From Verrucomicrobiota bacterium (GTDB lineage Bacteria > Verrucomicrobiota > Verrucomicrobiia > Verrucomicrobiales > Akkermansiaceae), in NCBI GenBank assembly GCA_004294095.1, contig RDZR01000026.1, positions 16,411 to 80,410 of the forward strand: 64,000 bases of DNA. The letters run 5' to 3'. The translations under genes were made by a program, and so were the position numbers. Positions 9,353 to 39,033 of this stretch are shown one piece after another (position 1 is the stretch's first letter; every line of letters starts with the position of its first letter). The notes beneath the pieces were generated by a model that had not been told where the DNA came from, did not search any database, and saw nothing but the letters and a program-made list of their open reading frames with translations.

Positions 9353-9404
9353 GCGATAGATCAAGGGTTGCGGCAGCCGGAATCTGCATCCAGACTGCTC
9401 CGCC

Positions 9405-10220: not shown

Positions 10221-10227
10221 TGCCCAA

Positions 10228-18088: not shown

Positions 18089-18550
18089 CTAACGAAGGTC
18101 CGGAAGTATGAGGAATGGTTCTAGGCGAATGATTCGACCATCGCTGTTTCGGATCGCGTAGGGATTATCCCGTTTCAACCCATCCGGGATGAGTGGTTCG
18201 GGACAAGTGAAAATCGGAATGATGTCTTCCTCGCAATCGGGAATATCGATGCCGATTGTCTTCATGTCCATAGTGCCACTCATGAATAGGCATGATGCAT
18301 CCGTCGTCATTGCTCCAATCTCGACTGTCTGATGGAGATACACTTTCGCTCCCGAAGGAAGTGAATGCTCATTTTCTTTATCCTCGATATACATCTTTCG
18401 GATCGTAGTCTTGAGCTCTAAGAGGGCTTCACGCAGAGAAGTCCCTTGAACAAGGCACGATAGGAACGTGTTTACCTTGGCATTGTCGGGAGCAACGAGT
18501 GCAAGTTGCGCTAGCCAAATTCTCGACGATTTCGTGGATGGTTTCTTCAT
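18089..18550 (-). CDS. Hypothetical 153-aa protein, paralog of 17399-17869
   Basis: See the paralog alignment blocks above. ATG start at 18550. Confidence 0.65.
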   Translation of the reverse strand: MKKPSTKSSRIWLAQLALVAPDNAKVNTFLSCLVQGTSLREALLELKTTIRKMYIEDKENEHSLPSGAKVYLHQTVEIGAMTTDASCLFMSGTMDMKTIGIDIPDCEEDIIPIFTCPEPLIPDGLKRDNPYAIRNSDGRIIRLEPFLILPDLR

Positions 18551-18671: not shown

Positions 18672-20021
18672 TTATGAAATAGTCCACTCCACTCCGCTTG
18701 GAGGGTGGTAGGACCAAGCACCGCTTGTGGATGAAAGATAAGCTTCGAGGTGTGCAGCAAAGGCGGCGAAACCATTCTCACGTAAGCAGTCTCTGCATCG
18801 ACTCATGCGGGCCCGGAATGCCATTGCCGTTGGCGAATCTTCGCCCCATCCTCCTTGTCTTGACGTGTAATTGCCACCTTGGGGGTGAAGATCATTCTGT
18901 GCCATTTTTGGGATGTCGACCGAAGAGTCCTCTGGTGCGTTCTCTTCGCTTTCATCCGTTGGCACCTCTACTGGCAAATCATTTGCTCCTGACATCCGTG
19001 AGTATTGTTTCTCCGCAATCGAGGCTAAAGGACCAAGCTCGCTAACAATCACAGCGAGCTCCTCTTCTTCATTCGCGGAGAGATCCTCCTCCTCTTCGAG
19101 TTCTCTGAGTTCGACATATCTGGTAAAGCGATGCGCTAGTGCAACCCGAATGAGATTCTCCTGGGCTTCCTCTGACATCTCGTTCCAAGGAACCCCTTTG
19201 GATACGAAGTAGTCCCTGACGGGATCTTCGACTTCCCCAGCATCGCCACTCCCAGCCTGATCGGGCTTTTCGTTTTTTGGTTCGAGGAACAAAGCTGCCT
19301 CTGGATTCAATGACTCGCCACGTTCCATTGACAAAATGTGATGCAACGTCTTGAAGCCGGTTTTGTGCGGAAGTGTCCGGATGTCCCCACAATCGAAGCG
19401 GATTTGCCAATGAAGCGACGTGGTCTCAATGAACTTTCGGGCTCCCTTTTTGTTCTTGTCTTCCTTTGCCGCCTTGACTCGTTCGAGGCTCTTCACTTCG
19501 ATCGGTCTGAAGATGTAACGCAACCTTCCCACCTCGCCGAAAACAAGAGCGATCTGCTCGATGCGATTGTGGAGAAGCGTCTGCGCCTCCTCCTGAGGTA
19601 GAAACCGTGAAGGCTTCTCGACCACCAACAGCCGCTCTGCCGGGAATTTCCGGTAGGCGGCGCTGCGTAAACTCTTCCTCAGCCTATCGCCCTCTTCCGC
19701 ACCCATAATCGTGTCGATACTGGCGTCGGTCTCTACACCAGTCAGCAAGGATACCATCCATGCGGATTGAAATCGTTTCAATGAGGCCAGGACATCGAGG
19801 CCCGACAGGTCGGCATCTCCAAGATTCACGTCCAAAGAGACCAGATCGTAAGGATGCGCTTGGGCCTGCCTGGCCAGATCACGAGCCTCTTCCACCGTGG
19901 ATGCGGTTTCGATCGTGATTGAGGTGTATCCCTGTGCAATGAAAACCTCGCGATAGGTCTTTTTTAAAAGAGCAAGCAAATCGGCTTCGTCTTCAACAAT
20001 GAGCATTCGGATGGATTTCAT
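18672..20021 (-). CDS. Orphan response-regulator receiver protein with a non-canonical output region (REC-A)
   Basis: Receiver signature 'LIVEDE' ... 'DLVSLDVNL' ... 'VSLLTGV' ... 'VVEKPS'. This is followed by 'WQIRFDCGDIRTLPHKTGFKTLHHIL', acidic linkers and a helical C-terminus. It is a paralog of 21995-23401. I chose the ATG at 20021; the track ORF runs to 20168. Confidence 0.8.
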   Translation of the reverse strand: MKSIRMLIVEDEADLLALLKKTYREVFIAQGYTSITIETASTVEEARDLARQAQAHPYDLVSLDVNLGDADLSGLDVLASLKRFQSAWMVSLLTGVETDASIDTIMGAEEGDRLRKSLRSAAYRKFPAERLLVVEKPSRFLPQEEAQTLLHNRIEQIALVFGEVGRLRYIFRPIEVKSLERVKAAKEDKNKKGARKFIETTSLHWQIRFDCGDIRTLPHKTGFKTLHHILSMERGESLNPEAALFLEPKNEKPDQAGSGDAGEVEDPVRDYFVSKGVPWNEMSEEAQENLIRVALAHRFTRYVELRELEEEEDLSANEEEELAVIVSELGPLASIAEKQYSRMSGANDLPVEVPTDESEENAPEDSSVDIPKMAQNDLHPQGGNYTSRQGGWGEDSPTAMAFRARMSRCRDCLRENGFAAFAAHLEAYLSSTSGAWSYHPPSGVEWTIS

Positions 20022-20041
20022 GGAGATTGGGTGGTTTGAAT

Positions 20042-20800
20042 TCAACGCAGCAGTGAGGGAATCTCCCCGCGCAGTGCCTCTGTAACTTCTTGCGTGACGC
20101 CTGTGGTCACAAGCAGTCGAAGGGTGGTTCTGAGCCGATTTCCAGTAGGGTGGCACGGTTGGGAACAAAACAGGTCGAGGTCGTATTCGTTGTCCTCAAA
20201 CACCTTCCGAACTTCCGTTGCAGCCGCAATCATTTCGCTCGCGCTGCCGGAGATTGCAGCCATTTTTAGAGCGGCCAGGGCAATCCGCCGCTTGTCAGCT
20301 CTCCGGCGGCCATTGAAGAAGACGAGATCCTTAGGCACAAGCTTCCCGAGCACCAAAAGCAAATCGGACAAAGACTCGGCTGAACGCCACACGCCATTGG
20401 CATTTGAAACAGGATCCAGAAAGTCCAAAGCCATTCCAGAAGCCAGAGAGGATTCAAATCCAGAGGGCGCGCCGGAAGGCAGGACGTGAATAAAGGCCAG
20501 TTGATGGCAGTCTCCGGCTGGAGAAAGCTTCTCCACCCACTTCCAAACCTCTTCGAAGCCGCTCAAATGATCCGAAGCGGACATCTTCAAGTCGGCCACC
20601 AAGAAGACATGAGTGAGTTCGTCCAGAGGCTTTTTCGAGAATACGCCACCGTCGCCCGGTTCCGGACCTGCCATAATCGACGGGTAGTCCAAGGTCGCGG
20701 CATCAAAAATCAAAGTCAGCGCCCTGGCCATAGGGCCGCTGCCAATCACCAAGGAATGAGGAGGAAAAAGTTCCCAGGATTGAGGAATTGCGGTGGGCAT
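20042..20800 (-). CDS. Hypothetical 'GSGP' protein, partner A (paralog of 23406-24107)
   Basis: 'LVIGSGPMARALTLIFDAA' and 'HVFLVADL' match 'IILGSGPVASVLAQVFDAL' and 'HVFQVATA' in partner B. I chose the ATG at 20800 over the TTG at 20836. No known family. Confidence 0.6.
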   Translation of the reverse strand: MPTAIPQSWELFPPHSLVIGSGPMARALTLIFDAATLDYPSIMAGPEPGDGGVFSKKPLDELTHVFLVADLKMSASDHLSGFEEVWKWVEKLSPAGDCHQLAFIHVLPSGAPSGFESSLASGMALDFLDPVSNANGVWRSAESLSDLLLVLGKLVPKDLVFFNGRRRADKRRIALAALKMAAISGSASEMIAAATEVRKVFEDNEYDLDLFCSQPCHPTGNRLRTTLRLLVTTGVTQEVTEALRGEIPSLLR

Positions 20801-20863
20801 GGGTCTCGGGCTTTTCGAGGAAGGAGTGCTGGGCAATGATGAAAGGAATGAACGTCGCCGTCA

Positions 20864-21457
20864 TCAAAGCACGGAATCAGGCACGGGAACTACCGCTTTT
20901 TTCCAAAAATCCATGGTCTTGGGCTCCAACAAGCCCTCTTCGTGGTCCCCAAACTCCAGGAGAGCATCAAGAAATGAAAGCGCGAGTTCGTGCCTTCCAA
21001 GGAGAGTCATTGACCGCAACATTCGGGTAATCCGCAGCTGATTGTGGTTACCCTTGCGAAGCCACGGATGGTAGTGAAGGGGCCAATTGTCCGATTCGTC
21101 ATATTGGCCAATCACCCTGAAGAGGACTTCTTTCACTTCGGGGCGGGCGGGATCGAGGCCAGGCATAAACCCAAAAAAATTCAGCATCTTGGAAATGGAT
21201 TTTTCGAAATTGTCCTGAAGCTTCGAATAACCAGCATGAGCTGGATCTAGGAAAATTTCCCTAATCTCGTCCGTAAGCACTGGAGCGTGGGGATTGAATC
21301 GACTGCTCACATAGAGCGGGAAAAGCCATTGGATGTAGTCGTGAGTTTCTTCAAGCCAAAGCTTATCCTTGGACAAAATCTCCTCAAGACTCCGCCCCAT
21401 GTGATCAGTGCCTGTGCCGAGGTAGAAATCGAGCAGCAACGTGTCTTCTTCGTTCAT
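20864..21457 (-). CDS. Opioid-growth-factor-receptor (OGFr_N)-like domain protein
   Basis: 'HDYIQWLFPLYVSSRFNPHAPVLTDEIREIF...MLNFFGF' matches the OGFr conserved-region signature (H.(Y/F)IQWLFPL...LT..EI..F). Confidence 0.75.
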   Translation of the reverse strand: MNEEDTLLLDFYLGTGTDHMGRSLEEILSKDKLWLEETHDYIQWLFPLYVSSRFNPHAPVLTDEIREIFLDPAHAGYSKLQDNFEKSISKMLNFFGFMPGLDPARPEVKEVLFRVIGQYDESDNWPLHYHPWLRKGNHNQLRITRMLRSMTLLGRHELALSFLDALLEFGDHEEGLLEPKTMDFWKKAVVPVPDSVL

Positions 21458-21990
21458 CTTAACTCATCCTCTCTGGCGAGAACTAATTCCATTTTGGCAT
21501 GGAGATCCGAAATCGAATCCATTCGGTCCAAAAACATTTTTCCGTCCAAGTGGTCGAGTTCGTGGAGGAAAACCCTTGCGGCGAGGTCGCGCAATTCACT
21601 TTCGATCAGCTCGCCATAACGATTCTGCCAACGGGCCAGAATTTTGGCAGGCCGAGTGATCAATGCTTTGTATCCGGGCATGCTGTAACAGGATTCCCAC
21701 GCCCGGTCGAGCTCTTCGGACTCCGAGAGAACTTCCGGATTGATAACCTCCATGGGCGGAACATCGGGAGCATTAGGGAAAAGTTCTCCTTTTCGCGACT
21801 GCATCACAAACAACCGGACGGATTCATTGACTTGAGGAGCGGCCAAACCGACGCCATTCACTCCGCCCATTGTTGCGAGGAGGTCATTGATAAGAATTTG
21901 AATCCGAGGATCTTCCGGATTGGGCACTTCGGGCGCACGTTCGCGAAGGATTGGATTTCCTATCAGAGCTACTTGGAGGATACGGGACAT
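21454..21990 (-). CDS. def: Peptide deformylase paralog
   Basis: All three PDF motifs are present: 'GVGLAAPQV', 'ESCYSMPG' (an EGCLS variant) and 'HELDHLDG'. There is an ATGA overlap with the OGFr-like gene. Confidence 0.85.
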   Translation of the reverse strand: MSRILQVALIGNPILRERAPEVPNPEDPRIQILINDLLATMGGVNGVGLAAPQVNESVRLFVMQSRKGELFPNAPDVPPMEVINPEVLSESEELDRAWESCYSMPGYKALITRPAKILARWQNRYGELIESELRDLAARVFLHELDHLDGKMFLDRMDSISDLHAKMELVLAREDELR

Positions 21991-21994
21991 TGGC

Positions 21995-23401
21995 TTAATA
22001 AGTGTTCCAGACAATGGATCCCTTTTCTACTGCATAGCAGAACTTGAAGTTACGTATCTTGATATTAGTGAATAGGTGGTCTGCCAACTCCACCTGCCCT
22101 GCCTCTCGGAGTTCGGCGATTGCTCTAGATTTATGTTGTTTGATCGTCTCGTGTGAACGGCCGCCCACGGTATTTCTGCGCACGTCGCCCAATGCCTTCC
22201 GAAGGGCTGCGATCTCGGTTTCGAGTATCGAGCGCAAGCGTCGATTGGCTGAGGCGAGCTGCGCCTCTTTTCGTTGAATTTCCCTTCGATACACGGCATG
22301 CGTTTCCTTAGCCGTGTCATCCGTATTCAGATTTTCCTGGATTGCTCGGTTGTTGTCGTAATCCCTACGATTCCCCCCATTTTCCCTTTGGAATGGATCC
22401 TCGTCGTCATCTTCGCCGTCCTCATCATCTTCGGCGTCTGACATGTCACCATCACCAGGGTTTTGATGAAGGAAGCCGACAGCCTCCTGGCCAATATCAG
22501 CAGCTTCACCACCAATCTGGTGTGCGGCAAACTCTTCATCTGGATGACGCAGCAACCACGCGATCGTTTCAAAATTCGGATTGTCCGGCAGGGAAATCAC
22601 TTCTCCACATCCGAAACTGATCTGCCATAGCGTGACTGTATCATCTGCCCATTGCGCGGGCGCAAGTTTGCTCCCATTCTTCTTCAACATGTCTAACTCT
22701 ATTTCCATTTCGTAGTCGCCTAGGCGTTTCGAATCGGAACAAGTAGAGGGACCTTTGGGGTACTTTTTGTTAAACGCTTTGACAAAATCCATGGCCTTTT
22801 TGGCCCGATTGAACTCTGGCGAGTTTCTTTTGATCCATTGTCCGTCAATCAACTCGTGAACAGCGATCTGGCAAGGCTCCTTCAAGCGACGGAAACGGTT
22901 GCGCCCGATACGACTCTGACGCAGGTACAGACAAACCTGGCGCAAGCGTTTGGCCAGCAGCTCCGTGTTGGATAGATCCGGCTTCTCCCTCACCATCAAT
23001 CGTTCCGGTGGAAAAGTCGCCGATGCACGAGAATGGAGCTCAAATTGGAGGAGTCGCGCCCGGTGCTCTCCGTAAGTGTCGTCCACGGTCGTGTCGCTTT
23101 CCACTCCGGTCAGAATCGAAACCAACCAAGCCGCCTTCCATTGACTAATGATGCCAAGAAGCGCGAGACCGTCGATGGGGTCTTCTGCCGCATCATTGCT
23201 AAAACTGATGTCGAGCGAAATCAGGTCGTAGGGAATCTCCGCTGCGCGACGGATCGCCTCCCGGCACTTCTGGATAGTGTCCGGGGCTTCAATGGTGCAG
23301 GGAAGCTTTAGATCATTGAAAATCTCCAAGAAGTTGCTTTTGATGGCTTGAGCCCATTTGGGTTCGTCTTCGACAATGAGGATGCGGAGAGGTTGTGACA
23401 T
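21995..23401 (-). CDS. Orphan response-regulator receiver protein with a non-canonical output region (REC-B)
   Basis: 'LIVEDEP' ... 'DLISLDISF' ... 'VSILTGV' ... 'MVREKPD'. This is followed by 'WQISFGCGEVISLPDNPNFETIAWLLRHPDEEF', a poly-acidic 'DAEDDEDGEDDDED' stretch, a coiled segment and 'ETIKQHKSRAIAELRE'. Confidence 0.8.
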   Translation of the reverse strand: MSQPLRILIVEDEPKWAQAIKSNFLEIFNDLKLPCTIEAPDTIQKCREAIRRAAEIPYDLISLDISFSNDAAEDPIDGLALLGIISQWKAAWLVSILTGVESDTTVDDTYGEHRARLLQFELHSRASATFPPERLMVREKPDLSNTELLAKRLRQVCLYLRQSRIGRNRFRRLKEPCQIAVHELIDGQWIKRNSPEFNRAKKAMDFVKAFNKKYPKGPSTCSDSKRLGDYEMEIELDMLKKNGSKLAPAQWADDTVTLWQISFGCGEVISLPDNPNFETIAWLLRHPDEEFAAHQIGGEAADIGQEAVGFLHQNPGDGDMSDAEDDEDGEDDDEDPFQRENGGNRRDYDNNRAIQENLNTDDTAKETHAVYRREIQRKEAQLASANRRLRSILETEIAALRKALGDVRRNTVGGRSHETIKQHKSRAIAELREAGQVELADHLFTNIKIRNFKFCYAVEKGSIVWNTY

Positions 23402-23405
23402 AGTC

Positions 23406-24107
23406 TTATGGAGTGAGGATGATCTGGCGAAGGAGCGATTCTCCTTCTACAAACCATTGCGTGACGGGGTCTGTATCCGGGGCGAGAAGCCACTCACGGA
23501 TGCGATTCGCCAACTCATGATCGGCCAGTGGGCAGTATCGCTCCCAGCGGAGTGGCAGTAAGTTGCTCGCAAGCTTCAAAATTCGACTCCGGTTCTCTTC
23601 GGTATGCTCGCCCTTGCAGACTAGCTGGAGAATTTCCTTCCTGAGCGCGACCTGTTCATCAGTGAGTTGGGAATTGAGCCATTCCGTGAACTGATGCGGG
23701 CGCGCCTCGTTGCAGGCTTCGAGAATACTGAATAGGCCTACCTCCACGGAAACTGGGAGGCAATACGGCGAGGGTGTGGCCCCGCATCCTCGGTCGCCAT
23801 GGTGGCAATCGAGAAGCAGCCACTTCAAGCCGGGGTCGCTTTTGATGTCTCTGCCACCCTTCGCGCCATAGAGCCGCCAGAACGCGTCATGCCGCCATCG
23901 CGTCTGCGCTGAAGACTCTGTGGCGGTAGCAACTTGAAAAACATGCCGACAGCCGATCAGTGGTGATTCGAAAGGGGTGGATAGCCCCCACTTCTGCCTG
24001 ATCAGCCGCTCGTCAGGAATCGGCAATGCGTCAAAAACCTGCGCCAGTACGCTCGCCACCGGGCCGGAGCCAAGGATGATTCGTTGTCGATGCGGGCTTG
24101 CGGGCAT
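23406..24107 (-). CDS. Hypothetical 'GSGP' protein, partner B (paralog of 20042-20800)
   Basis: See partner A. 233 aa, with a 4-nt gap to REC-B and a 3-nt gap to the 875-aa gene. Confidence 0.6.
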   Translation of the reverse strand: MPASPHRQRIILGSGPVASVLAQVFDALPIPDERLIRQKWGLSTPFESPLIGCRHVFQVATATESSAQTRWRHDAFWRLYGAKGGRDIKSDPGLKWLLLDCHHGDRGCGATPSPYCLPVSVEVGLFSILEACNEARPHQFTEWLNSQLTDEQVALRKEILQLVCKGEHTEENRSRILKLASNLLPLRWERYCPLADHELANRIREWLLAPDTDPVTQWFVEGESLLRQIILTP

Positions 24108-24110
24108 GAC

Positions 24111-26738
24111 TTAGAAAAGCCGCTTAAACTCTGATCCCGTCAGACACTCATCCCACTTGCTGGCACTTTTACGAAGAAAACGTTCTGCAAGATAGCTGGT
24201 CGCAAGCCTATCGACTGGAGTCAACGAAACGCCACGCATGTGATTGATCGCTTCGACATTGTCTTTCATTGCGCAAGCCCGGAACAAAGAATTGAATGGC
24301 TCCTGAACTACTTGAATATAGCCACTACTAAACCATTCATTTGCCGATGCAGGAAGATCGTTCGGTCGATACAGAGCAATACGAGCTACCCAATCGGCCA
24401 GATAATGGATCTGCTTGGGATCAACCCGGTTTGGGGCAAAAAGCTGATTGCGGACACGCTGCAACATTTGTGGCCCTCGTCGGAAATTGTTGATAATATC
24501 CTCAAAATCGTTCAAAACCGCGCCTCTTGCAGTTCTCACATCTGGTCTTCCATCCAGAACCCCCCGATCTTTCAAGATTCCTCGCACAATCCTGTGAACG
24601 CCATCGCAATCTAAACTAGTATAGTTCCAATTGCCGGCTCGCTCTTTAAACTCTATACCGTAGGCAGCGTGCCAAGTGCTTCGCGTTGCAAAGTCGGCTA
24701 GCTTTTGCTGCCGTGTGGCGGCATGAACATAAACAGCATCAACAGATATATTAATCCATGGGTGCTCAAACAACAGCATCTCAAGGTTCTGCCTTAGCAG
24801 CGTGTGGTAGATGTTGTCCAACGCATTTTCATCGAAGAGAATCGCGCTGTCGATCACCCTGTCGCGGCTGAACCTAAGCAACTCGGGATCAAGAATGGAA
24901 AAGGCTGCAATTCGACTTCCGCTACCCCTCGCAGCATCAATTGCAAGCTGGAAACCCGCGACTTCGTCCTCCGAACCGGGAACTGGTTTTTTAGGAAAGT
25001 AACAAATACTATTGAGTCGATTCTCTCCACCAGGCCGGATTTGGTCAGGTCCGTAGTCCGAGACACCCCATTTTCTGGGCGCATGATTGACGGACCGATG
25101 GAATGCTTCCATGGCATCTTTGTTCTCATGTGACACAACAATGCCGCCCACGGAAAAGCCCGGATCCCTTTGATTGAACGGGTCTCCAGACTCGTCGATG
25201 TAGATCTCGATAAACCGCTTTGGACGTCCTGTATTTTCGTTCTCGCAAATCGCCCGATCCAGCCGAAACGAGGCCAAGGCTTTTCGCGTGTCCATAATCT
25301 TGCAAGCATGATCGACAGCCGAGGAAAAATCCGACCTAATCTCGCCCACCATCTCGCTCCATGAACTACATAGTCCAGCGAGAATCGGCTTACGGAAGGT
25401 GGTGATGATATTTCCATAATCACGGAAAGGGGCAATCAATTCGCTGCGGTGGGTAGATGAAAAAACGATGATTGGCAGCGTTGGATCAATCAGTGCGACC
25501 AATCGTGGCAATAGCGTTTCGTCGGTGTTGGCCGCGTTAAGTTCGGCCAACAATGCCTGTTTTCCCTCTATCGTCACCCAAGGAAGATTCCTAGTTGAGT
25601 TCAAGAGAGTCCGGCCTAAGTCCTCAAGTTGAGATTGGAACTCCCTACCTAACTCCAAGCGAAGATCCAACAGAAGAACGAAATTCGAGTCGGCATGATG
25701 TGGTTCGCCAGTCAAATCAGACGGGTTGAGTGGTTTTTCGCTGGCTATCACAGCCGTGAGACGTTCGCAGAGGTTGCCCATTTTTGCGGGAAACTCTCGT
25801 GAGGGGATAGTGATGAATTCCGAGCTCCCCTCCCTGATCAGTCCGAAGGCAAACTGAACAAACCAGCTCCAAAGATCGGCCATATCGTCAATCATGACAA
25901 TCGAGGAAAACGCTTGCTGTTGTTGCTCAGAGATCCACCACTGAGAATTAGCATCGTTGTCATCTGCGAGCCTATTCGTGTTGGATTTGACTCCGCAAGC
26001 CGTAGCCAACTCCAAGAGGTAAGGAGCGATGGGGAAGTGCGTATTGAGTTGATTGACAAATTCAGAAATACACCCCGGAGCGGCTTGAAAGGGCAGTAAG
26101 AAAGCCCCAAGAACATTGCTCAAGGCGTGATGCTGCTCGCGGTTGGAGGTGAGTTCGCTCCAGATGGTGGATTTAAGGAGGCCACAGAGATGGGGCGTGT
26201 CTTTGAACATACTGCGCTTATCTAATTTGGAATCAGAAAGCCACTTGCAGATCGCTTCCAAGCCGGGAGCATTCAAGACTGCGGCACGGGGGACGAGGGG
26301 CTGGCCCAAGACGTTGCGGGCACCAAGGATCGTCTGCAGCGCACGCGCCGTGCCGCTGGCGGGGCACAGCTCCTGAGGGTCGATGACAGCGATAGCAGCT
26401 TTAGCATCAGGAAACTTCACTTTCCAGGCGGCAAGCCAAGAGGTGGCGGTGAAGTGATCGCGGAAGTTTATCTTCGTGAGGCTGGGAACATCCGTTTCAA
26501 AGACTCCATCCGGCGGATGGTTGCCTATGATCAGGATTTGCTTATACGCATCAGTGAGGTCAATTTCTCGTCCACAAATGGTTGACTTGCCAGTTTCGAG
26601 AGCCTGTATCCAGAGGGCAGAGAAGGTAATCGTGTCGTTGTAGTCGAGAAGAGAGATAGCTGGATTCGCTGTCTTCCCGGGGCCGTGTAGGATCCGCCCG
26701 AGAGCCTCGAAGAATGGTGATGTCTCGATGTTCTTCAT
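24111..26738 (-). CDS. 875-aa multidomain protein: unknown N-terminal domain + receiver-like domain + DUF3800-like C-terminal domain
   Basis: The central region carries 'VMIDDMAD' ... 'VLLLDLRLE' ... 'IIVFSSTH' ... 'TTFRKP', the receiver D-D/D/S-T/K-P pattern. The C-terminal region starts with 'IEIYIDESGDPF' and contains 'QIHYLADWVA', like DUF3800 (from memory). Confidence 0.6.
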   Translation of the reverse strand: MKNIETSPFFEALGRILHGPGKTANPAISLLDYNDTITFSALWIQALETGKSTICGREIDLTDAYKQILIIGNHPPDGVFETDVPSLTKINFRDHFTATSWLAAWKVKFPDAKAAIAVIDPQELCPASGTARALQTILGARNVLGQPLVPRAAVLNAPGLEAICKWLSDSKLDKRSMFKDTPHLCGLLKSTIWSELTSNREQHHALSNVLGAFLLPFQAAPGCISEFVNQLNTHFPIAPYLLELATACGVKSNTNRLADDNDANSQWWISEQQQQAFSSIVMIDDMADLWSWFVQFAFGLIREGSSEFITIPSREFPAKMGNLCERLTAVIASEKPLNPSDLTGEPHHADSNFVLLLDLRLELGREFQSQLEDLGRTLLNSTRNLPWVTIEGKQALLAELNAANTDETLLPRLVALIDPTLPIIVFSSTHRSELIAPFRDYGNIITTFRKPILAGLCSSWSEMVGEIRSDFSSAVDHACKIMDTRKALASFRLDRAICENENTGRPKRFIEIYIDESGDPFNQRDPGFSVGGIVVSHENKDAMEAFHRSVNHAPRKWGVSDYGPDQIRPGGENRLNSICYFPKKPVPGSEDEVAGFQLAIDAARGSGSRIAAFSILDPELLRFSRDRVIDSAILFDENALDNIYHTLLRQNLEMLLFEHPWINISVDAVYVHAATRQQKLADFATRSTWHAAYGIEFKERAGNWNYTSLDCDGVHRIVRGILKDRGVLDGRPDVRTARGAVLNDFEDIINNFRRGPQMLQRVRNQLFAPNRVDPKQIHYLADWVARIALYRPNDLPASANEWFSSGYIQVVQEPFNSLFRACAMKDNVEAINHMRGVSLTPVDRLATSYLAERFLRKSASKWDECLTGSEFKRLF

Positions 26739-27466
26739 GGCCGAAGTGTATTAAGGAAATCCAGTTTCTCGGAGAGCGCCTTGGATGCGGATACCAGATT
26801 TTGCCCGCTCTTTGACGCTTTTACGACCTCCGCCGCCAATTTGGTGAGATCGTCCGGTGGTTTAACAATCGTGATGCGGTTGCATTCTTCTGTCTCGATT
26901 CCAGACGCCTCCATCAAAAGCCTTGCAGCCATAACTACCTCGTTGAGCCATGCGATGTCGGTTGATGCGCATGCACCTGCCTCGTCCCGAAGTGTCCGGA
27001 GCACTTGAAGCTCTTGATTCACAACTTGTTTTAGGAAATCCGCGTCGCATCGAGGAGGCAGAACGCCTGCATAAAATCTGACACGTAAAGACGGATAGCC
27101 TTCCAGTGGTCCTCCTTTACCAGTTGCGGCTAAACACCACTCGCTTCTTGTTGCCAATTTTGTGTCGCCCCCAGAGTAAAGAATAACGTAAGGCTCGGAA
27201 CCCGCCGGGCAATTCCTCAGGCACTTTATAAACCCTTGAATCTGGACAGAGTGCGAGTACTCGTTCTCCCAGTTCGTTAGAGTAAGGTCAGGATGTTCAC
27301 CTCGCTCATGCTCGTGTGTATGAGCGAAGACAAGATCAACTGGATCGAATGTTGGTGGGAAACTGCTGTCATGCTCGTGTGCAAAAACAATCTCAGTCAG
27401 ACCACCAGTGGGAAATGCATTCTTCCACGCTTCAACGCGACAGGTATCAATAATGTAGATCTTCAT
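26735..27466 (-). CDS. Hypothetical 243-aa protein (possible degenerate flavodoxin/receiver-like N-terminus)
   Basis: An ATG ORF with an ATGA overlap onto the 875-aa gene. The strand pattern 'KIYIIDT', 'DLVFAH', 'YVILYSGG' is suggestive only, and there is no K-P. Confidence 0.5.
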   Translation of the reverse strand: MKIYIIDTCRVEAWKNAFPTGGLTEIVFAHEHDSSFPPTFDPVDLVFAHTHEHERGEHPDLTLTNWENEYSHSVQIQGFIKCLRNCPAGSEPYVILYSGGDTKLATRSEWCLAATGKGGPLEGYPSLRVRFYAGVLPPRCDADFLKQVVNQELQVLRTLRDEAGACASTDIAWLNEVVMAARLLMEASGIETEECNRITIVKPPDDLTKLAAEVVKASKSGQNLVSASKALSEKLDFLNTLRP

Positions 27467-27470: not shown

Positions 27471-30335
27471 CTATTTTTTATCGAATGTAATTGTCTGTTC
27501 GTCTCTGTTCACCGTGAATTTGAAAGCTAGCTCTAAATGCCCATACAAAGATATTGGGGCCGTAGTCTCAAATTCGGTGATTTTGCAGAATGCATCCAGC
27601 AGGACTGATGCTTCTTCGCACTTATTGCCGCCCACTTTCTCCGAAAGCGATTTTTTCAGCTTCAGTGTTACACTGAAGCTCTTACTGTTAAAGTTACCTT
27701 CATAATTCAGTATGATCTTTTCTAGCAACGATTGACTTCGCAAACTGTGCGCGAGCTCGGCAAGAACGATGGAAGGGTCTTTGTCGCTGAAAAACGCACT
27801 CGATGGAAAATCGGCAGGCTCATCAAACTCTTCATTCCCAGATACAACAATAATCGGGATTTCCGTATTCATCCCACTCTCAGTCATCTTTACTGTGGCC
27901 GCCTGCAGCAGCCTATGTAGTCGTCCTGAGGTAAACCGAACTCCAACTCCCTTGTTAGCTCGCGTCTTGCAGAAAACAGCTTTCAGATTGGCAAAGGGGC
28001 CTTTTGTGCGCGGGCAGGCTTGTGCAAAATTTGGATCGCAATCGACATTTCTCTTCAAGCAGTCTGATTGGACATCGTTTAGCTGAGACAATTGCGCGAT
28101 CATCCAAACAAAAAGAAAATGATCAAGGGTGCTCTGCCCGAAGTAATCGCAGACAACTTTCGATGATGACTTTTTTCCATTTCTCAGAAATGCCAAAGCT
28201 GCGGGAAGCCATGATTCATCAATTCCGCTTTTCAGATCGCCAGAATAACCAAGGATTCGGAACATAGCCCGAAGACGATCCAAGTGATGATTGCAAAACC
28301 AAGCTTCGTGACCACTCACACCTCCAGGAACGTCTTCGAAAAATCTGCCCTCCTCAAACCACAGCGAGATTCGAAGTGCTGAATCGAGAATAGCGACTTT
28401 CTTCTCCTTTTCCCAAATAGATCGCAAGCGTGAGTTCATAGCTTTGACAGCAGCCATCTCTTTGATGGGATAAGAAGGAAGTCCCAGAACCCATGATTTC
28501 CATTCGCGTCCGAGAACTCCGCCGGTGCGCTGTGTTGAATCGCCCAGCCAATAATCCTGGGGAGTAGACTCAGTTTTTTCCCGGCCAAACAAATATCGGT
28601 CAACGATTTCCAGCTTGGAGCTGACATCCCTATACCTGGGGAAATTGGACCAATCAGCTTCCAAACAGGCTTGGATCCAGGGACGAACAATCGTTATTCT
28701 CACAGATTCGTCAGTTAGCAGAACAAGGATGTCGTCGTGAAGGGACTTGAGGGTTGAGTAAAAGACATCAAAGGAAGTAGTTTTGGGATCAAATGGCTTC
28801 GGAAACTTGAGCGCGAGGCAAAACAATGGCAGACTGCCAAAATAGATGGGAAGCATGAAGTAACTCGGATAGTCCGTCTCATCTCCCCAGCACCCCCGTT
28901 TAAGCTTTTTGTTCTTACTGTCTGAGGAATTCAGTCCAAAGACTTCTAATTCAAGTTCTTCAAGAGCAATATCGACAGCGGTTAACTGGTAGTCCGAAGC
29001 CCATTGCGTAGCAAAGGCCTGAACGCTGCTGGATCGGGCGAAGCATGTCTGAAAAACGCCATTTGCACTTGGATAATGAGTTTGCGCACGACTGGGATGC
29101 TCAATCAGCATGGGGTGCGTGGAGATAGTGGTATCAAGCCCTCGGAACAACGGCACGATCCGGGCAAACACAAGGCAAGGGTCGAAAGGAAGAATAACCA
29201 ATGCCTCTCTGCTCCCGGACGTAGATCCTTTTTGGTTTTTCGGATCATCGAACAATGAAATCATCATTGAGATTCGTTCGGAGTTCGAAACCACCGATTC
29301 GTTGATCGAACCTTCTATTACTGAAAAAAATGCATCGTTTAGAATTCCCGCCAAGGGATCGCGAGAGACAAGCACATGGCAGTCCATGGCTCCCCATCCC
29401 GTCTCATGATGTAGGGACAATTGCCGAATGTAACTGACGTCTTTGTTCTCCCCATCCTTCCGAACAAGCATTCCATTTGTTCGCCCCTCCTTTAGTACCT
29501 TATCGGCTTGTTCGCGGGTGAATCTAAGCCCGGATGGCATACCCTCAACGCCGCCAAATAGCTCGGTGGTTGTGTACGCCGCCTGGGTAGATTTAAAGAA
29601 CCATCCATCCTTTCGATTTGCGGGTGGCGGCTCTTCCCAAATTCCTCGTCTAAGTAGCCTATCTGCGATCTTCTCCGTCTTGAGCCATAAGGTTTTACCG
29701 TCCTCCGGAGGCCGTCCATGTTCTAAATAAATGGCACCCACTTTGCTAAGATTACTAACAACTGAGTCCCATGTAGAATAGACATCGACCAGAAGAATTG
29801 AAGGGCGAAGATCCAGAATAGCGTTAGTCAAGCATTGCTGGTCAAAGTGAAACCAGGTGTGAGCCATGATCAGAAGAGCCGTTGTCCCCCAAGCGTCCTC
29901 ATTATCTTCCTTATCGAATAGACTTCTCAATGCATGATCGGGGCATGGATCACATACACTGAATTGAGCTTTAGACTTGGCAGTTTTGGCGCTACGATTC
30001 GCCTGCTCAATTGCAGCTGGAGAACAATCCAGCCCGTAGAACTCCAATTTTGTTTTTGATGCGAATTTCGTGAGGTGATTCAGGAAACTTCCCTCTCCAC
30101 ATCCGTAATCGACGACCCGCGTGATATGAGGCAGGGCGGGATCACTGCCACATCTAGATAAAACTCGACACCATATCTGCTCTGCAGATTGTTTTTGCTT
30201 GTCTTCGAAATCGGGGAAAAGCTTGCTGAACATCTTCTGTGCATAAAGCATCTTCCCATAGTCATGGGGTTCGTCCCTTTCAAGTGTTAGAGTATCACAC
30301 ATAATATTATTTAAATAGATGTAGGGATGCTTCAC
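27471..30335 (-). CDS. 954-aa protein: N-terminal class-I SAM-dependent methyltransferase fused to ~750 aa of unknown function
   Basis: 'VVDYGCGEGSFLNHL' (motif I) is followed by 'LEFYGLDCSPAAIEQA' (motif II acidic residue). I recognise nothing in the remainder. The GTG at 30335 overlaps the upstream gene by 29 nt. The alternative ATG at 30302 leaves a 4-nt gap. Confidence 0.65.
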   Translation of the reverse strand: MKHPYIYLNNIMCDTLTLERDEPHDYGKMLYAQKMFSKLFPDFEDKQKQSAEQIWCRVLSRCGSDPALPHITRVVDYGCGEGSFLNHLTKFASKTKLEFYGLDCSPAAIEQANRSAKTAKSKAQFSVCDPCPDHALRSLFDKEDNEDAWGTTALLIMAHTWFHFDQQCLTNAILDLRPSILLVDVYSTWDSVVSNLSKVGAIYLEHGRPPEDGKTLWLKTEKIADRLLRRGIWEEPPPANRKDGWFFKSTQAAYTTTELFGGVEGMPSGLRFTREQADKVLKEGRTNGMLVRKDGENKDVSYIRQLSLHHETGWGAMDCHVLVSRDPLAGILNDAFFSVIEGSINESVVSNSERISMMISLFDDPKNQKGSTSGSREALVILPFDPCLVFARIVPLFRGLDTTISTHPMLIEHPSRAQTHYPSANGVFQTCFARSSSVQAFATQWASDYQLTAVDIALEELELEVFGLNSSDSKNKKLKRGCWGDETDYPSYFMLPIYFGSLPLFCLALKFPKPFDPKTTSFDVFYSTLKSLHDDILVLLTDESVRITIVRPWIQACLEADWSNFPRYRDVSSKLEIVDRYLFGREKTESTPQDYWLGDSTQRTGGVLGREWKSWVLGLPSYPIKEMAAVKAMNSRLRSIWEKEKKVAILDSALRISLWFEEGRFFEDVPGGVSGHEAWFCNHHLDRLRAMFRILGYSGDLKSGIDESWLPAALAFLRNGKKSSSKVVCDYFGQSTLDHFLFVWMIAQLSQLNDVQSDCLKRNVDCDPNFAQACPRTKGPFANLKAVFCKTRANKGVGVRFTSGRLHRLLQAATVKMTESGMNTEIPIIVVSGNEEFDEPADFPSSAFFSDKDPSIVLAELAHSLRSQSLLEKIILNYEGNFNSKSFSVTLKLKKSLSEKVGGNKCEEASVLLDAFCKITEFETTAPISLYGHLELAFKFTVNRDEQTITFDKK

Positions 30336-31170
30336 ATTCCGCTATAAGAGTTGCCTCACTTTCGACTCCGGCAGAAGGGAATCCAAGATTCAAAATGGAC
30401 GTGGTCCTGGCCCCAAAAATTTCAACGGCGCGCATTGATCCCAATTCAACGTAATGCCTACAAACAGATGGAAAAAGGCTAACAAAGGCAGTGGCGCCTG
30501 TTCGAGTGGTTGCCTCGTATATCATTTCTGCAACTTCTCCTGTGCAATCCGCTGACTTTCCCGTGCAATACGCTTCCTGCAATGCTCCGGAAAGATCCGG
30601 AAGTAAACAGACGACATTCCCATTTGACTCCTCTATCCGTGCAGATGGAGGAAGCTTGCCGTCCGCAATCAACTGTGCCATGCGATTTTTGTGACGATTT
30701 CGTAAGTTCATTTCACCATAAAACGGTGCGGTCGATACGGCGTTCGATACAGGAGGCTTCGGCTCTAGCAACGCAACGCTGTCAGAGTGTAAAGCGAGCG
30801 TTTCAGAATAGACCTGTGGTAACCCTATTTGGCCCGTATAGAAGCTGGACCGATTCACGTCTTTCGGGACGTATTGCCAATCGTTTACCGCAATCATCAC
30901 ATGCTTTTGTGGGGTCTCAAGTTCCGCCATCAGTTTCAACGCGAGTTTCCAAGTAAGAATGGGAAAGTGACCATAAGCCTCGAAAAATGGTTCTATAACC
31001 GGGGTTATGGGCTCACCTTGAACGCAGGAAACGAGGCAACCTTTTGACTTGTCATACATCAGCAGAAAATGCCCTGCCTGGAAAACAACGGATTGCGCAT
31101 CCCCTACAGCCGCGATCGTCAAATCGCGAAGAGCTTCGTAGTCTTTAGGAAAATGGTGCGTAAGATTCAT
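30307..31170 (-). CDS. Hypothetical 287-aa protein translationally coupled to the cysteine desulfurase
   Basis: An ATG ORF with an ATGA overlap onto the desulfurase stop. It contains a Cys pair, 'CTGKSADCTGE'. No known family and no PP-loop SGGxDS. Confidence 0.55.
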   Translation of the reverse strand: MNLTHHFPKDYEALRDLTIAAVGDAQSVVFQAGHFLLMYDKSKGCLVSCVQGEPITPVIEPFFEAYGHFPILTWKLALKLMAELETPQKHVMIAVNDWQYVPKDVNRSSFYTGQIGLPQVYSETLALHSDSVALLEPKPPVSNAVSTAPFYGEMNLRNRHKNRMAQLIADGKLPPSARIEESNGNVVCLLPDLSGALQEAYCTGKSADCTGEVAEMIYEATTRTGATAFVSLFPSVCRHYVELGSMRAVEIFGARTTSILNLGFPSAGVESEATLIAECEASLHLFK

Positions 31171-32303
31171 TGGCTGGTGGCTGGAGTGAGATTAAACGCC
31201 TGCTCCACCATTGTGGCGGCAGCGACAATCTCTTCTGAGGTGGTATGGCAACTGAGGCTGAAACGCAAAGTGCCGTTGGCACGTTCCTCCGAAAAGCCCA
31301 TCAATCTGATAACATGTGAGGACTTCCCCCCACTGGAACAGGCGGCCCCTGCCGAAACTGCCACACCAAAACGGTTGAGAGCGGCGACTAGATCCGCAGC
31401 GTTGCGTCCGGGACAGTAGAGGCTAATGGTATTTGAAAGGCGAAGGCTGAGACGGCCATGGACCTCAGAGCCGGGGATTTTCTCCAATAGATTGATCTCC
31501 AGCTGATTTCGGAGCGATTCTACACGAGACCCTGCTTCGAGACTTCGCTGGAGCAGGCTTGCGGCAACACCGCAACCGACAATGGAAGGTAGGTTCTCGG
31601 TCCCGGCCCGAAGTCCCTGTTGTTGATGGCCTGGAGCGGGAATGCGGCGGTGGAAATCACCAACGGGGCGCTGTTTCAGGAAGAGGATTCCGCAGCCTGG
31701 GGGTCCGTGAAACTTGTGAGCTGACAAGCTGGCCGCAGCACAGTCGAGGCTATCAAGATGCAATGGTAATTTTCCCACTGCCTGGATCGCATCCACGTGG
31801 AGTAGCGATCCGGCCTCACGGCAAATTGCTGAAACGGATGCGATGTCGGCAATGACACCTGTTTCATTATTGGCGAATCCGACGGAAACCAAAGAAGGCA
31901 GTTTGCTTGCCGCCCATCTCAAATAATCTAGATCGAGGGCACCCTCGGCATCAACTGGCACGCACAACACTTTTCTCCCATCTGCCCAACGCTCGGCCGC
32001 CCGAAGGACAGCACTGTGCTCCACTGAGGAAATTAGAATTTGGCGGATGTCGGGCGACAACAAACATGAAAAACCCAAGTTGATGGACTCTGTGCCGGAT
32101 GCCGTGAATACCAGACTGGCTGGTGAGGCAATACCGCATGCGGAAGCGGTGGTGTAGCGCGCACTCTCAAGGGCTTCCCTTGCGTTCCGGCCCATTTCGT
32201 GGGCGCTGGAGGGGTTGCCCCAGTTCTGACTGAGCGTATTCGTAACTGCGTCGATAACCTCGGGCAGCGGTGCGGTCGTTGAATTGTTGTCCAAGTAAAT
32301 CAT
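31167..32303 (-). CDS. Cysteine desulfurase (NifS/IscS-type class-V aminotransferase)
   Basis: 'IYLDNNSTTAP', 'GNPSSAH', 'FTASGTESIN', PLP-lysine 'SAHKFHGPPGCG', and the active-site loop 'SAGAACSSGG'. I chose the ATG at 32303. Confidence 0.88.
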   Translation of the reverse strand: MIYLDNNSTTAPLPEVIDAVTNTLSQNWGNPSSAHEMGRNAREALESARYTTASACGIASPASLVFTASGTESINLGFSCLLSPDIRQILISSVEHSAVLRAAERWADGRKVLCVPVDAEGALDLDYLRWAASKLPSLVSVGFANNETGVIADIASVSAICREAGSLLHVDAIQAVGKLPLHLDSLDCAAASLSAHKFHGPPGCGILFLKQRPVGDFHRRIPAPGHQQQGLRAGTENLPSIVGCGVAASLLQRSLEAGSRVESLRNQLEINLLEKIPGSEVHGRLSLRLSNTISLYCPGRNAADLVAALNRFGVAVSAGAACSSGGKSSHVIRLMGFSEERANGTLRFSLSCHTTSEEIVAAATMVEQAFNLTPATSQ

Positions 32304-32968
32304 TTTTGATGCAAAAAAGCCAGAGTGTGTTTCCGAATCGAATCTCGGTAGCTGATTTCGTCTGCGCGTTTGTCTGGGATTTGGTGGAAAATTGCTGAGG
32401 GAAAGCAGCACGCTAAGTGTTTAGAGAATGAGATTGGATGAAGTTCATCATTTGGCATTCCCAAGATCATTACGGGTTGTTGAATAGACCGCAGTTCGGT
32501 AAGGCTAAACCCCGGATCGAGGCCCAATAGAGAATGAAGCTGTTTGGGAATCTCTGATTTAGCGGAGGCAAAATCCACACTACATTCAGGCGTAGGCCAT
32601 GCGGGCCTGAGAAGTATGAGTTTGGTTACCATTGAAATGCTGGCTAAAGCGAGTTTGACGGCTACAAGGGCTCCGAGTGAAAGGCCACCCATTGCATGCG
32701 GTTGTTGAACCACCTGTTTGGAGAACCAAACTTGATCTTCAAGTAATTGAGATAACGTTGGCGATGTACAATCAGTCATTTCGGTGCTTCCATGCCCCCG
32801 GAAATTCATACTGTAGAGACATATTCCCGGCAGCGGCGAGAGAACTTCGAACACCTGATTTGCTGATCCACCCAATCCATGCTGAAAGACTAACGGATTT
32901 CCTTTACCTTCTTGGAGATACCTATGCGCATCACCAAATTCATGTTTTGTAGATTTCCAGGAAGGCAT
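32300..32968 (-). CDS. Alpha/beta-fold hydrolase
   Basis: 'LVFQHGLGGS' (HG oxyanion), 'GGLSLGALVA' (GxSxG), and a C-terminal Asp/His region 'NDELHP'. There is an ATGA overlap with the desulfurase. Confidence 0.7.
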   Translation of the reverse strand: MPSWKSTKHEFGDAHRYLQEGKGNPLVFQHGLGGSANQVFEVLSPLPGICLYSMNFRGHGSTEMTDCTSPTLSQLLEDQVWFSKQVVQQPHAMGGLSLGALVAVKLALASISMVTKLILLRPAWPTPECSVDFASAKSEIPKQLHSLLGLDPGFSLTELRSIQQPVMILGMPNDELHPISFSKHLACCFPSAIFHQIPDKRADEISYRDSIRKHTLAFLHQK

Positions 32969-38726: not shown

Positions 38727-39033
38727 ACCTGCCCCTCCTTCTATTTCGACGATCATGATGCGGAGGCCATGGCTCGGACGAGCTACAGTCCTGGTATCTG
38801 ATATTTGATCTTCCAAAGATGCCACGCCAAAGAATAGAAAGACCCAAAAAACTTATAGCCAGTGCCAACAGAGGGACTGAAATCTCGTCGAGCATCGACA
38901 ATGCGACTAATCCCAACGGATGACTCGACGTTAGCAGAACCATCAGCAATACCGTTGGCCAACGCATAAAACGCGGACCACGACCGAGCCAACACCAGCA
39001 GGAAAGAGAGATAGTAAGGATGATTGGGAGCAT
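38716..39033 (-). CDS. Small hydrophobic protein (105 aa), first ORF of the HerA module
   Basis: An ATG ORF with 2-3 hydrophobic helices. It overlaps the next gene by 11 nt. A GGCGTGACGGG site sits ~24 nt upstream of its ATG. Confidence 0.4.
   Translation of the reverse strand: MLPIILTISLSCWCWLGRGPRFMRWPTVLLMVLLTSSHPLGLVALSMLDEISVPLLALAISFLGLSILWRGIFGRSNIRYQDCSSSEPWPPHHDRRNRRRGRYDH

Follow-up and report, generated by a model that had tools for sequence, protein, structure and literature searches.

A large protein family that joins a divergent receiver-like domain to a DUF3800-like domain within a three-gene module of PVC-group bacteria

Results

The F0 gene and its product

We examined a stretch of 64,000 nucleotides (nt) from a Verrucomicrobiota bacterium of the family Akkermansiaceae (assembly GCA_004294095.1, contig RDZR01000026.1, positions 16,411 to 80,410), hereafter the window, and within it a gene that we call F0. 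F0 is an 875-codon open reading frame (ORF) with an ATG start at 24111..26738 of the minus strand, as given by ORF calling and translation. Its product is a member of a large undescribed family and is probably a signal-gated enzyme that cuts nucleic acid. An earlier note, made by a model from the sequence letters, had described the 875-amino-acid (aa) protein as a fusion of an N-terminal part that resembles nothing known, a receiver and a DUF3800-like domain. The ends that it gave for the gene are exact, whereas the strand, which it left unstated, is the minus strand; the plus strand of the same interval contains many stops. Every motif that it quoted was located in the protein, in the order given: MIDDM at residues 282-286, LLLDLRL at 355-361, VFSST at 425-429, FRKP at 448-451, YIDESGD at 513-519 and QIHYLADW at 776-783.

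An AlphaFold2 model of the protein, built on 53 sequences, has a mean predicted local distance difference test score (pLDDT) of 89.6 and a predicted template modelling score (pTM) of 0.87. It consists of an N-terminal domain (residues 1 to ~250), a low-confidence linker (~258-261), a (beta-alpha)5 unit (271 to ~490) and a C-terminal domain (~505-875). These boundaries match the extents of about 270, 220 and 370 aa that had been proposed for the three parts. The gene and its parts lie in the window as follows.

24111..26738, minus strand: F0, 875 aa, with an N-terminal domain, a receiver-like (REC-like) domain and a DUF3800-like domain (ORF call, AlphaFold2 model, homologues)
25989..26738, minus strand: N-terminal domain, residues 1 to ~250 (conservation and a model of the domain alone)
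25269..25928, minus strand: REC-like domain, residues 271-490, a (beta-alpha)5 unit with two insertions (model, Foldseek, residue invariance)
25665..25667, minus strand: codon of Asp358, the predicted phospho-acceptor (invariance and position after the strand at 353-357)
24114..25226, minus strand: DUF3800-like domain with a predicted RNase H fold, residues ~505-875 (Pfam, BFVD fold match, conservation)

The start codon of F0 overlaps the stop codon of the gene upstream (ccATGAag; ATGA), and the gene downstream starts 4 nt past the F0 stop. F0 belongs to a run of twelve minus-strand ORFs between 32968 and 18672 that overlap or are separated by no more than 28 nt. Thus, F0 is an internal member of a long operon. 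A scan of this operon for promoters and terminators gave counts equal to the shuffled expectation.

The fused architecture is conserved in a large family

A word-index search returned 80 homologues of F0, mostly from Verrucomicrobiota metagenome bins, and an exhaustive HMMER search with a family profile returned at least 848 clusters at 50% identity (E<=1e-3), with 787 of them at E<=1e-10 and 479 at E<=1e-30. The bulk of the family lies in bacteria of the Planctomycetes, Verrucomicrobia and Chlamydiae (PVC) group. A scan of species-representative genomes found it in metagenome-assembled genomes of Verrucomicrobiota, Planctomycetota and Hydrogenedentes, and a relative from Anaerolineae turned up in the protein search. 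Conservation was read from two alignments, A1 with 53 relatives and A3 with 52 more distant ones, 105 members together; the relatives used for deep conservation are 21-27% identical to F0.

The three-part layout that the earlier note had described is evolutionarily conserved among these relatives. All three domains are present in 99 of the 198 family proteins examined (median length 900 aa), and 53 of the 198 carry the N-terminal and REC-like domains (N-REC) only. An early impression from BLAST, that N-REC is joined to variable and unrelated C-termini, was wrong: a hidden Markov model (HMM) of the C-terminal domain recovers a divergent DUF3800-like domain in nearly all of them, with or without extensions.

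In four of the related loci (L001, L006, L007 and L009) an N-REC part of ~470-550 aa adjoins a DUF3800-like part of ~390-415 aa encoded as a separate gene. Each part has its own start codon, and the split form is a natural variant; the split-off gene of L001 aligns end to end with the F0 C-terminal domain at 26% identity (E 3e-20). Separate genes in some genomes are what one would expect if a sequencing or assembly error, such as the frameshift that the earlier note had considered, had merged two genes into the 875-aa ORF. Independent assemblies from several phyla, however, contain the fused form at 24-56% identity, and the 99 complete proteins tell the same way, so that comparative data refute an artefact and leave it a practically negligible chance. 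The natural occurrence of both forms rules such an error out and indicates that the two halves act together. No description of a receiver-DUF3800 fusion, or of the three-gene arrangement described below, was found in the literature searched, Pfam, NCBIfam or PADLOC, in line with the earlier note, which knew of no description of the architecture.

The central domain retains a complete receiver pocket

In the model the central region has a pLDDT of about 90. Its five strands (DSSP; 279-283, 308-310, 353-357, 423-425 and 444-445) alternate with helices; the alpha2 and alpha3 regions hold additional helices, and a long helix at 460-489 ends the domain. The top Foldseek matches of the model in the Protein Data Bank (PDB) are receivers: 2rdm comes first (probability 0.90, TM(target) 0.53, E 0.15, TM being the template modelling score), followed by DctD, PorX and Spo0F. 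Likewise, ranks two and three in BFVD are phage response-regulator proteins.

The residues expected of a phosphorylation pocket stand at the C-terminal ends of the predicted strands: D284-D285 after beta1, D358 after beta3, S427-S428-T429 after beta4 and K450-P451 after beta5. D358 is invariant in 53 of 53 relatives in A1 and in 52 of 52 in A3. Among relatives of 21-27% identity R360, K450 and P451 are invariant as well, and D284, D285, S427, S428 and T429 nearly so; across both alignments the pocket positions are invariant or at least 92% conserved.

Two of the distances between these residues are longer than in CheY. D285 and D358 are 73 residues apart, D358 and S428 70, and S428 and K450 22, while the counterpart spacings in CheY are 44, 30 and 22 (T87, K109). 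The domain thus carries two insertions, one of about 29 residues and one of about 40. As modelled, it is a highly divergent receiver with an intact pocket, and the receiver landmarks singled out by the earlier note hold up: the fold, the strand order and the full set of phospho-chemistry residues are present.

The C-terminal domain resembles DUF3800 proteins

The DUF3800 profile PF12686 matches nine of the 53 A1 members, about 29 of which carry the C-terminal domain (best E 7.6e-7), and six of the 52 distant relatives, P0185 among them at 23.3 bits. Searched against BFVD, the whole model finds its best fold match in a phage protein named 'DUF3800 domain-containing protein' (E 0.018, probability 0.97). 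Weak fold matches to Argonaute PIWI and retroviral Pol fragments fit an RNase H-like fold, and the strand-helix order of the modelled domain is compatible with it, which gives moderate support. DUF3800 has itself been modelled as an RNase H/H2-like fold (PMC10910872, PMC7736814). With PF12686 in 15 relatives and the top BFVD match, the earlier assignment of this region as DUF3800-like is borne out.

Conserved residues of the domain in the wide family are D515, E516, K583, D641, E653, T675, R676, H778 and D782. At 21-27% identity E516 is invariant, and D515, H778 and D782 are nearly invariant. Together with the pocket residues of the receiver, conservation at this depth shows that the motifs noted earlier did not arise by chance. 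DUF3800 proteins carry an N-terminal D-E motif and a C-terminal Q-x-x-D motif (PMC7736814). Here the D-E motif and the final D are kept, and the position three before D782 is Y or F instead of the Q; D782 is conserved in 49 of 52 distant relatives and Q776 in only 21 of 52. Of the hallmarks cited earlier, the D-E of YIDESGD and H778/D782 are therefore conserved, whereas the Q776 of QIHYLADW is not. A similar loss of the conserved Q has been reported for DUF3800 proteins of type VII retrons (PMC7736814). Its fold and D-E motif place the domain in the DUF3800 group as a divergent member; on Pfam score and on the QxxD motif its status is borderline.

The set D515-E516...D641...E653...H778...D782 suggests, at the level of sequence, an active nuclease of the predicted RNase H type, and its acidic constellation may be like the catalytic-metal binders of RNase H-fold nucleases. 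In five of the 52 distant relatives an additional domain that binds RNA or single strands is present: KH_5 in two, cold-shock (CSD) in two and RRM_1 in one. Where it could be located, in three relatives, it lies C-terminal to the receiver region. These additions suggest that the substrate is RNA or single-stranded nucleic acid.

F0 is followed by two partner genes

We compared the gene context of the window with that of 15 related loci and of one further contig, P0003 (the latter as a gene list only). In 13 of the 14 contexts with enough flanking sequence, F0 is followed by a gene for a ~250-aa protein, F2, and then by a gene for a ~430-aa receiver protein, F1. Locus L014, from Anaerolineae, has in their place a 173-aa gene and, at the F1 position, a sigma54 activator (enhancer-binding protein, 8888-10690), and in L012 the next two genes have the right sizes, yet fall outside the F2 and F1 clusters. 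Just past the gene at the F1 position in L013 lies a gene for a protein with an RNA polymerase alpha C-terminal domain (alpha-CTD; L013:13201-13830). The window contains the following genes downstream of F0.

23406..24107, minus strand: w233, a divergent F2 member of the ~250-aa family (hhalign against the F2 alignment, 97.3% probability; BLASTP against w264, E 1e-4)
21995..23401, minus strand: wREC468, a divergent F1 paralogue, a receiver with a C-terminal region that has no assignment (28% identical to wREC498, E 8e-29; weak PF00072 match, E 0.0016)
20864..22014, minus strand: a peptide deformylase that looks like a second copy and a protein of the OGFr_N family, lying between the two F2/F1 pairs (Pfam)
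20042..20836, minus strand: w264, orthologue of the F2 gene (tblastn, ORF clustering, alignment)
18672..20168, minus strand: wREC498, orthologue of F1, a receiver with a conserved region of ~300 aa (PF00072, E 2.2e-8)

The window thus holds two F2/F1 pairs. F0 is followed by the divergent pair w233/wREC468, the peptide deformylase, the OGFr_N protein and, 3 kb further along, the orthologous pair w264/wREC498. This doubling accounts for the three receivers that the earlier note had counted. OGFr_N also follows the F0 homologue in L006, and a deformylase gene lies near the edge of locus L010. Directly downstream of wREC498 are two paralogous small ORFs on the minus strand (17399-17869 and 18089-18550; 156 and 153 aa, 28% identical, E 1e-21); neither matches a Pfam family or has a homologue in the related loci.

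By tblastn w264 finds homologues of 24-41% identity in L002-L005, L007, L010 and L011, always right behind the F0 homologue, and ORF clustering and alignment add F2 genes in L001, L006, L009, L013 and L015. In the F2 alignment (A5) G20, W86, C212 and H217 are invariant, and the motif DLFCRPPxHxNGNxLRxWL contains the invariant Cys-x4-His (C212, H217). The Cys-x4-His together with W86 and G20 suggests a putative metal or catalytic site. A profile search found no F2 relative among PDB sequences, and w233 has no match in Pfam, NCBIfam or PADLOC.

The true start of wREC498 is probably the ATG at 20021. The protein is 49-57% identical to the product of the gene after F2 in seven loci, and less so in L009 and L001. 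The best 120 of 188 F1 homologues are ~430 aa long and 51-78% identical, with PF00072 as their sole Pfam domain on record. Many of the F1 homologues sit on contigs equal in length to contigs that carry F0 homologues. An F1 profile searched against the PDB returned the receiver alone, and F1 has no detectable DNA-binding domain.

The N-terminal domain has no detectable relatives

The N-terminal domain was also modelled alone, with a pLDDT of 89, and forms an alpha/beta subdomain (~1-172) followed by a helical bundle (~177-247). Together with the receiver it is the best-conserved part of the protein. W43, W101, H204, N208 and L215 are invariant, and E201 and G211 nearly invariant across the family; several of these residues fall in the motif R-E-Q-H-H204-A-L-S-N208-V-L-G. 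The domain has no match in Pfam, NCBIfam or PDB sequences. A Foldseek search of PDB folds with the domain-only model gave nothing credible (best probability 0.12, TM <=0.25), as the earlier statement that this part resembles nothing would lead one to expect. Hhalign comparisons with the C-terminal region of F1, with F2 and with F28, the family of the gene upstream of F0, were negative. The N-terminal domain is probably the input domain and would respond to a partner protein or to a ligand. With no detectable relative in the PDB, it is a candidate new fold.

The pattern E201-x-x-H204-x-x-x-N208-x-L210 is one that we take to resemble the H-box of HisKA_2/HWE kinases; the fold search gave this resemblance no support. 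It bears on an explanation in which the module is a self-contained relay: the N-terminal domain would be the phosphodonor, its helical bundle akin to a histidine phosphotransfer (HPt) domain, and His204 and the F0 and F1 receivers would exchange phosphate with no classical kinase involved. The conserved motif lies in a four-helix region, and the operon encodes three receiver proteins and no kinase, which fits such a relay. We nonetheless find it very unlikely, since Foldseek with the N-terminal model returned no kinase, dimerization and histidine phosphotransfer (DHp) or HPt structure (best match as above), Pfam returned no HisKA, HPt or HATPase match, no ATP-binding domain is recognisable, and in the model His204 stands at the very start of its helix.

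Upstream genes and the wider neighbourhood

The genes upstream of F0 in the operon, and the two-component pair farther upstream, are listed below.

26735..27466, minus strand: w243 (family F28), immediately upstream of F0 and translationally coupled to it (ATGA overlap)
27471..30335, minus strand: wMT954, a 954-aa protein with an N-terminal S-adenosylmethionine (SAM)-methyltransferase domain (Pfam Methyltransf_31/25, residues 72-129)
30307..32411, minus strand: w287 and a class-V pyridoxal phosphate (PLP) enzyme, cysteine-desulfurase-like, 414 aa (Aminotran_5, E 3.6e-61)
40244-42885, minus strand: a two-component pair, a HisKA/HATPase_c kinase (592 aa, 40244-42022) overlapping an OmpR-type regulator (288 aa) (Pfam)

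The upstream genes occur in at least two alternative sets across the loci. The set in the window comprises an SSF transporter, a hydrolase, the class-V PLP enzyme, w287, wMT954 and w243. A homologue of w243 holds the same position in L003, where wMT954 also has a homologue upstream of F0 (43% identity); genes of similar size to wMT954 lie upstream in the P0003 contig and in L013, and the stretch with w287 and the PLP enzyme is syntenic in L003, L013 and the P0003 contig. Outside residues ~70-130, about 800 aa of wMT954 found no match, and a profile search returned the methyltransferase motif alone. In L001 separate upstream genes encode a 260-aa methyltransferase and a 554-aa protein; their homology to wMT954 could not be shown. 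The alternative upstream set consists of an ABC (ATP-binding cassette) ATPase, a radical-SAM enzyme, a peptide-type ABC transporter and proteins of ~840, ~430-540 and ~250 aa. The only link between the upstream genes of the two locus types, A and B, is a weak hhalign match (58.7% probability) of F28 to F9, the family that occupies the position of w243 elsewhere.

Recurrent neighbours across the loci are HerA-like ATPases, a ~600-aa AAA+ protein and xanthine/uracil permeases. In the window, 34781-38825 of the minus strand encodes a 329-aa protein that has hydrophobic segments and is Cys-rich at its N-terminus, an 821-aa HerA/DUF87-like ATPase (PADLOC mad8/HerA) and a 231-aa protein. Homologues of the HerA and 231-aa proteins lie upstream of the module in L004, and a DUF87 ATPase of similar size with a ~200-aa gene lies upstream in L013 and in the P0003 contig.

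Three of the contexts also have, near the module, a ~1300-aa TCAD9 protein, a fused beta-beta' RNA polymerase or both. The fused polymerase is a single gene for ~1850-2130 aa, 7-10 kb downstream of the F0 homologue, with Rpb2_6/7 and Rpb1_2/5 Pfam domains (L002:20341-23066, L003:19796-22676 and the P0003 contig); in L002 and L003 the ~1300-aa TCAD9 (kinase-like) protein and a ~215-aa protein precede it. The window contains none of these three, and literature searches on TCAD9 and on fused RNA polymerases in Verrucomicrobia gave no description of the F0-F2-F1 system.

The earlier note had spoken of a third receiver without a kinase. The island indeed has none, whereas the window does contain one, at 40244-42022, paired with its own OmpR-type regulator. 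It is the sole kinase of the window, lies 13.5 kb away and probably has nothing to do with the island. On the plus strand, 39446-40240 holds a DUF4143 fragment.

The flanks of the window carry housekeeping genes of PVC type (PSCyt/PSD1/DUF1501, GcvT, PurK and a type II secretion system (T2SS) ATPase). At 55565-59922 of the minus strand lie genes for a PSCyt1/PSCyt2/PSD1 protein (961 aa) and a DUF1501 protein (491 aa). Such a pair is typical of Planctomycetota and Verrucomicrobiota and supports a PVC-group chromosomal origin of the window. The GC content is even across the window, and no integrase or transposase was found among the ORFs scanned. A mobile-element origin was considered and rejected on the uniform GC, the housekeeping flanks and the failure to find a match in phage, plasmid and IMG/VR collections. 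Rfam at the gathering threshold found no RNA family in the window, including the RNA motifs associated with DUF3800, and ARAGORN found no transfer RNA (tRNA) in it.

PADLOC returned generic matches in the window: HerA to mad8, the methyltransferase motif to mad2, the cysteine desulfurase to SspA/DndA and receiver regions to PDC-M60B/C at E>0.007. These cover generic domains only, and an assignment to the MADS or Dnd/Ssp systems was therefore rejected.

A rival explanation is that the module is a regulator rather than a weapon. It would then be a dedicated controller, post-transcriptional or transcriptional, of the uptake and modification genes nearby, with the DUF3800-like domain processing or merely binding a specific transcript and F1 acting as a transcription factor. 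We consider this rather improbable. The tight shared operon with the SSF transporter, hydrolase, PLP enzyme and methyltransferase protein agrees with it, as do the exchange of these genes in other loci for peptide-type ABC transporters and a radical-SAM enzyme, or for xanthine/uracil permeases, the sigma54 activator at the F1 position in L014, the alpha-CTD protein nearby in L013, the unusually high conservation of F1 (51-78% identity) and the housekeeping flanks, uniform GC and lack of visible mobile-element genes. The conserved catalytic-type residues of the C-terminal domain, however, favour cleavage over mere binding, F1 lacks a detectable DNA-binding domain, and HerA-like and AAA+ ATPases, TCAD9 and nucleoside-hydrolase/LOG-like neighbours are more typical of conflict systems.

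Discussion

A receiver-gated nuclease as the proposed function

The analysis supports the architecture, the residue conservation and the gene linkage of F0 and, at the level of prediction, its folds; phosphorylation, nuclease activity, an RNA substrate and a biological role are what we infer from them. We read F0 as an atypical, response-regulator-like enzyme, a receiver-gated nuclease of the RNase H type that works in a three-gene module, and regard this reading as tentative, a little short of evenly balanced between belief and doubt. In it, the N-terminal domain (1-250) would take in a signal, and phosphorylation of D358 would move the receiver relative to the nuclease domain and so alter their contact. 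The altered contact would turn cleavage on or off, and the DUF3800-type domain (505-875) would cut RNA, or the RNA strand of a hybrid. F0 would act inside an obligate three-gene module with F2 and F1, where F1, the more ordinary receiver, may serve as a competing phosphate sink, a co-regulator or a carrier of the signal to transcription.

Several results weigh against this reading. Pfam did not detect PF00072 in the REC-like domain of F0 itself (reporting limit E<=0.1) or of any of the 105 family members (0/105; limits of E<=0.05 for the 53 relatives and E<=0.01 for the 52 distant ones). Hhalign against canonical receivers (with the receivers of the window among them) and against the F1 receiver gave probabilities below 1%, and no receiver match was found in NCBIfam or among PDB sequences, by phmmer or by hmmsearch with the family profile. 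All Foldseek E-values are weak, at 0.15 for the receiver (TM ~0.5) and 0.018 for DUF3800 (TM ~0.36), with none below 1e-3. F0 matches PF12686 at E 0.0045 and 18.1 bits, under the Pfam cut-off of 21 bits, over profile positions 2-63 of 149. The DUF3800 literature that we consulted contains no demonstrated activity for these proteins. No PADLOC model matches F0, F2 or F1, and the phage, plasmid and IMG/VR collections hold no relatives of the family. Finally, neither the operon nor 278 kb of the 15 related loci contains a histidine kinase (Pfam lists; tblastn with the window kinase, E<=1), so that there is no evident phosphodonor.

The failures of the receiver profiles can be traced to the two insertions that the spacings reveal. 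They also mean that the receiver is not 'canonical-looking', as the earlier note had put it: it has insertions of ~29 and ~40 residues and escapes both PF00072 and profile-profile comparison. Of the two similarities for which the note had proposed profile searches, REC is thus seen by no profile, whereas DUF3800 is detected in 15 relatives, with F0 itself below the cut-off (18.1 against 21 bits).

A receiver that profiles miss could be a pseudo-receiver, with the CheY fold kept and never phosphorylated. It would then be a scaffold, or a hinge moved by a ligand or partner, and control would pass through the N-terminal domain and the binding of F2 and F1. The insertions reshape the alpha2 and alpha3 faces, no kinase is found in cis in 15 neighbourhoods, and the N-REC unit, the most conserved part of the protein, exists alone in some relatives, all of which suits a pseudo-receiver. 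Against it stand the five pocket positions and the Pro after the Lys, all invariant or nearly so in more than 100 sequences and down to 21% identity. Pseudo-receivers usually lose some pocket residues. Conservation of the full pocket is hard to explain without phospho-chemistry, and we consider a pseudo-receiver fairly unlikely.

A further proposal is that F0-F2-F1 forms the core of a kinase-independent phospho-signalling conflict system, as yet undescribed, in PVC-group bacteria. The N-terminal domain, through His204/Asn208, would sense an invader or stress and feed phosphate to Asp358, which would free an RNase of the RNase H type; F1 would buffer or relay the signal, and in some genomes the system would be wired to the fused beta-beta' RNA polymerase and TCAD9. 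This proposal is a speculative one, to which we give little credence. A defence role is favoured by the gated nuclease, the modular surroundings rich in ATPases, the faster-evolving effector domain and the precedent of Detocs. Against it, the module is tightly coupled with genes for transporters and metabolic enzymes, F1 is conserved to a very high degree, and the locus bears no mobile-element or defence-island signature.

Comparison with known systems

In Detocs a toxic effector is gated by a receiver, and a second receiver protein has been proposed to act as a buffer (bioRxiv 10.1101/2023.01.24.525353). The system consists of a histidine kinase with tetratricopeptide repeats (TPR), DtcA, a stand-alone receiver, DtcB, and a receiver-effector protein, DtcC (bioRxiv 10.1101/2023.01.24.525353). 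Like DtcC, F0 fuses a receiver to an enzymatic effector that could be toxic; its operon, too, encodes a further receiver-containing protein, and the underlying logic is one of domain swapping (bioRxiv 10.1101/2023.01.24.525353). In contrast to Detocs, however, the 15 neighbourhoods contain no DtcA-like kinase; the receiver of F0 is central and highly divergent, whereas that of DtcC is N-terminal; the effector is DUF3800-like and not the PNP of DtcC; and F1 bears an extra region of ~300 aa, while DtcB stands alone. The obligate ~250-aa F2 and the N-terminal domain that has no relatives are further additions, and there is no PADLOC match. F0 therefore falls outside Detocs and has in common with it only the logic of receiver plus effector.

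DUF3800 proteins occur as accessory or fused proteins of type VII retrons, as TPR-DUF3800 proteins associated with Cas12a2, and in phages. With these the C-terminal domain of F0 shares the D-E on the first strand, the C-terminal Asp in an 'xLAD' helix and the predicted RNase H/H2-like fold (PMC7736814, PMC10910872). It differs from them in length, ~370 aa against a Pfam profile of 149 positions, and in the Y or F in place of the Q of QxxD. The neighbouring ORFs scanned contain no reverse transcriptase or Cas Pfam domain, in a comparison that included no dedicated search for repeats or CRISPR arrays. The DUF3800 literature consulted does not mention fusion to a receiver.

Among enzymatic response regulators such as PorX (REC-PglZ), CheB and RpfG, a receiver fold likewise governs a covalently attached enzyme, and the best structural matches of F0 include PorX and CheY-like receivers. 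The receivers of these proteins, in contrast, stand at the N-terminus, can be detected by PF00072 and have known kinases, and none of the proteins has a DUF3800 output or a 250-aa domain before the receiver.

Implications

F0 is a putative receiver-controlled enzyme assembled from an N-terminal domain that has no detectable relatives, a very divergent receiver and a poorly understood DUF3800 domain, in a large and uncharted gene system. The three receiver proteins with no adjoining kinase pose a testable question, namely how such receivers are charged. If the proposed function is correct, a nuclease would join the outputs that are governed by receiver domains. DUF3800, which is widespread and is found with retrons, at Cas12a2 loci and with structured RNAs, would for the first time be seen in a setting that is regulated and open to experiment. 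Multi-gene loci in which almost no component carries an annotation would also come to light in large numbers in Verrucomicrobiota, Planctomycetota and other phyla, with at least 848 clusters of the core protein at 50% identity.

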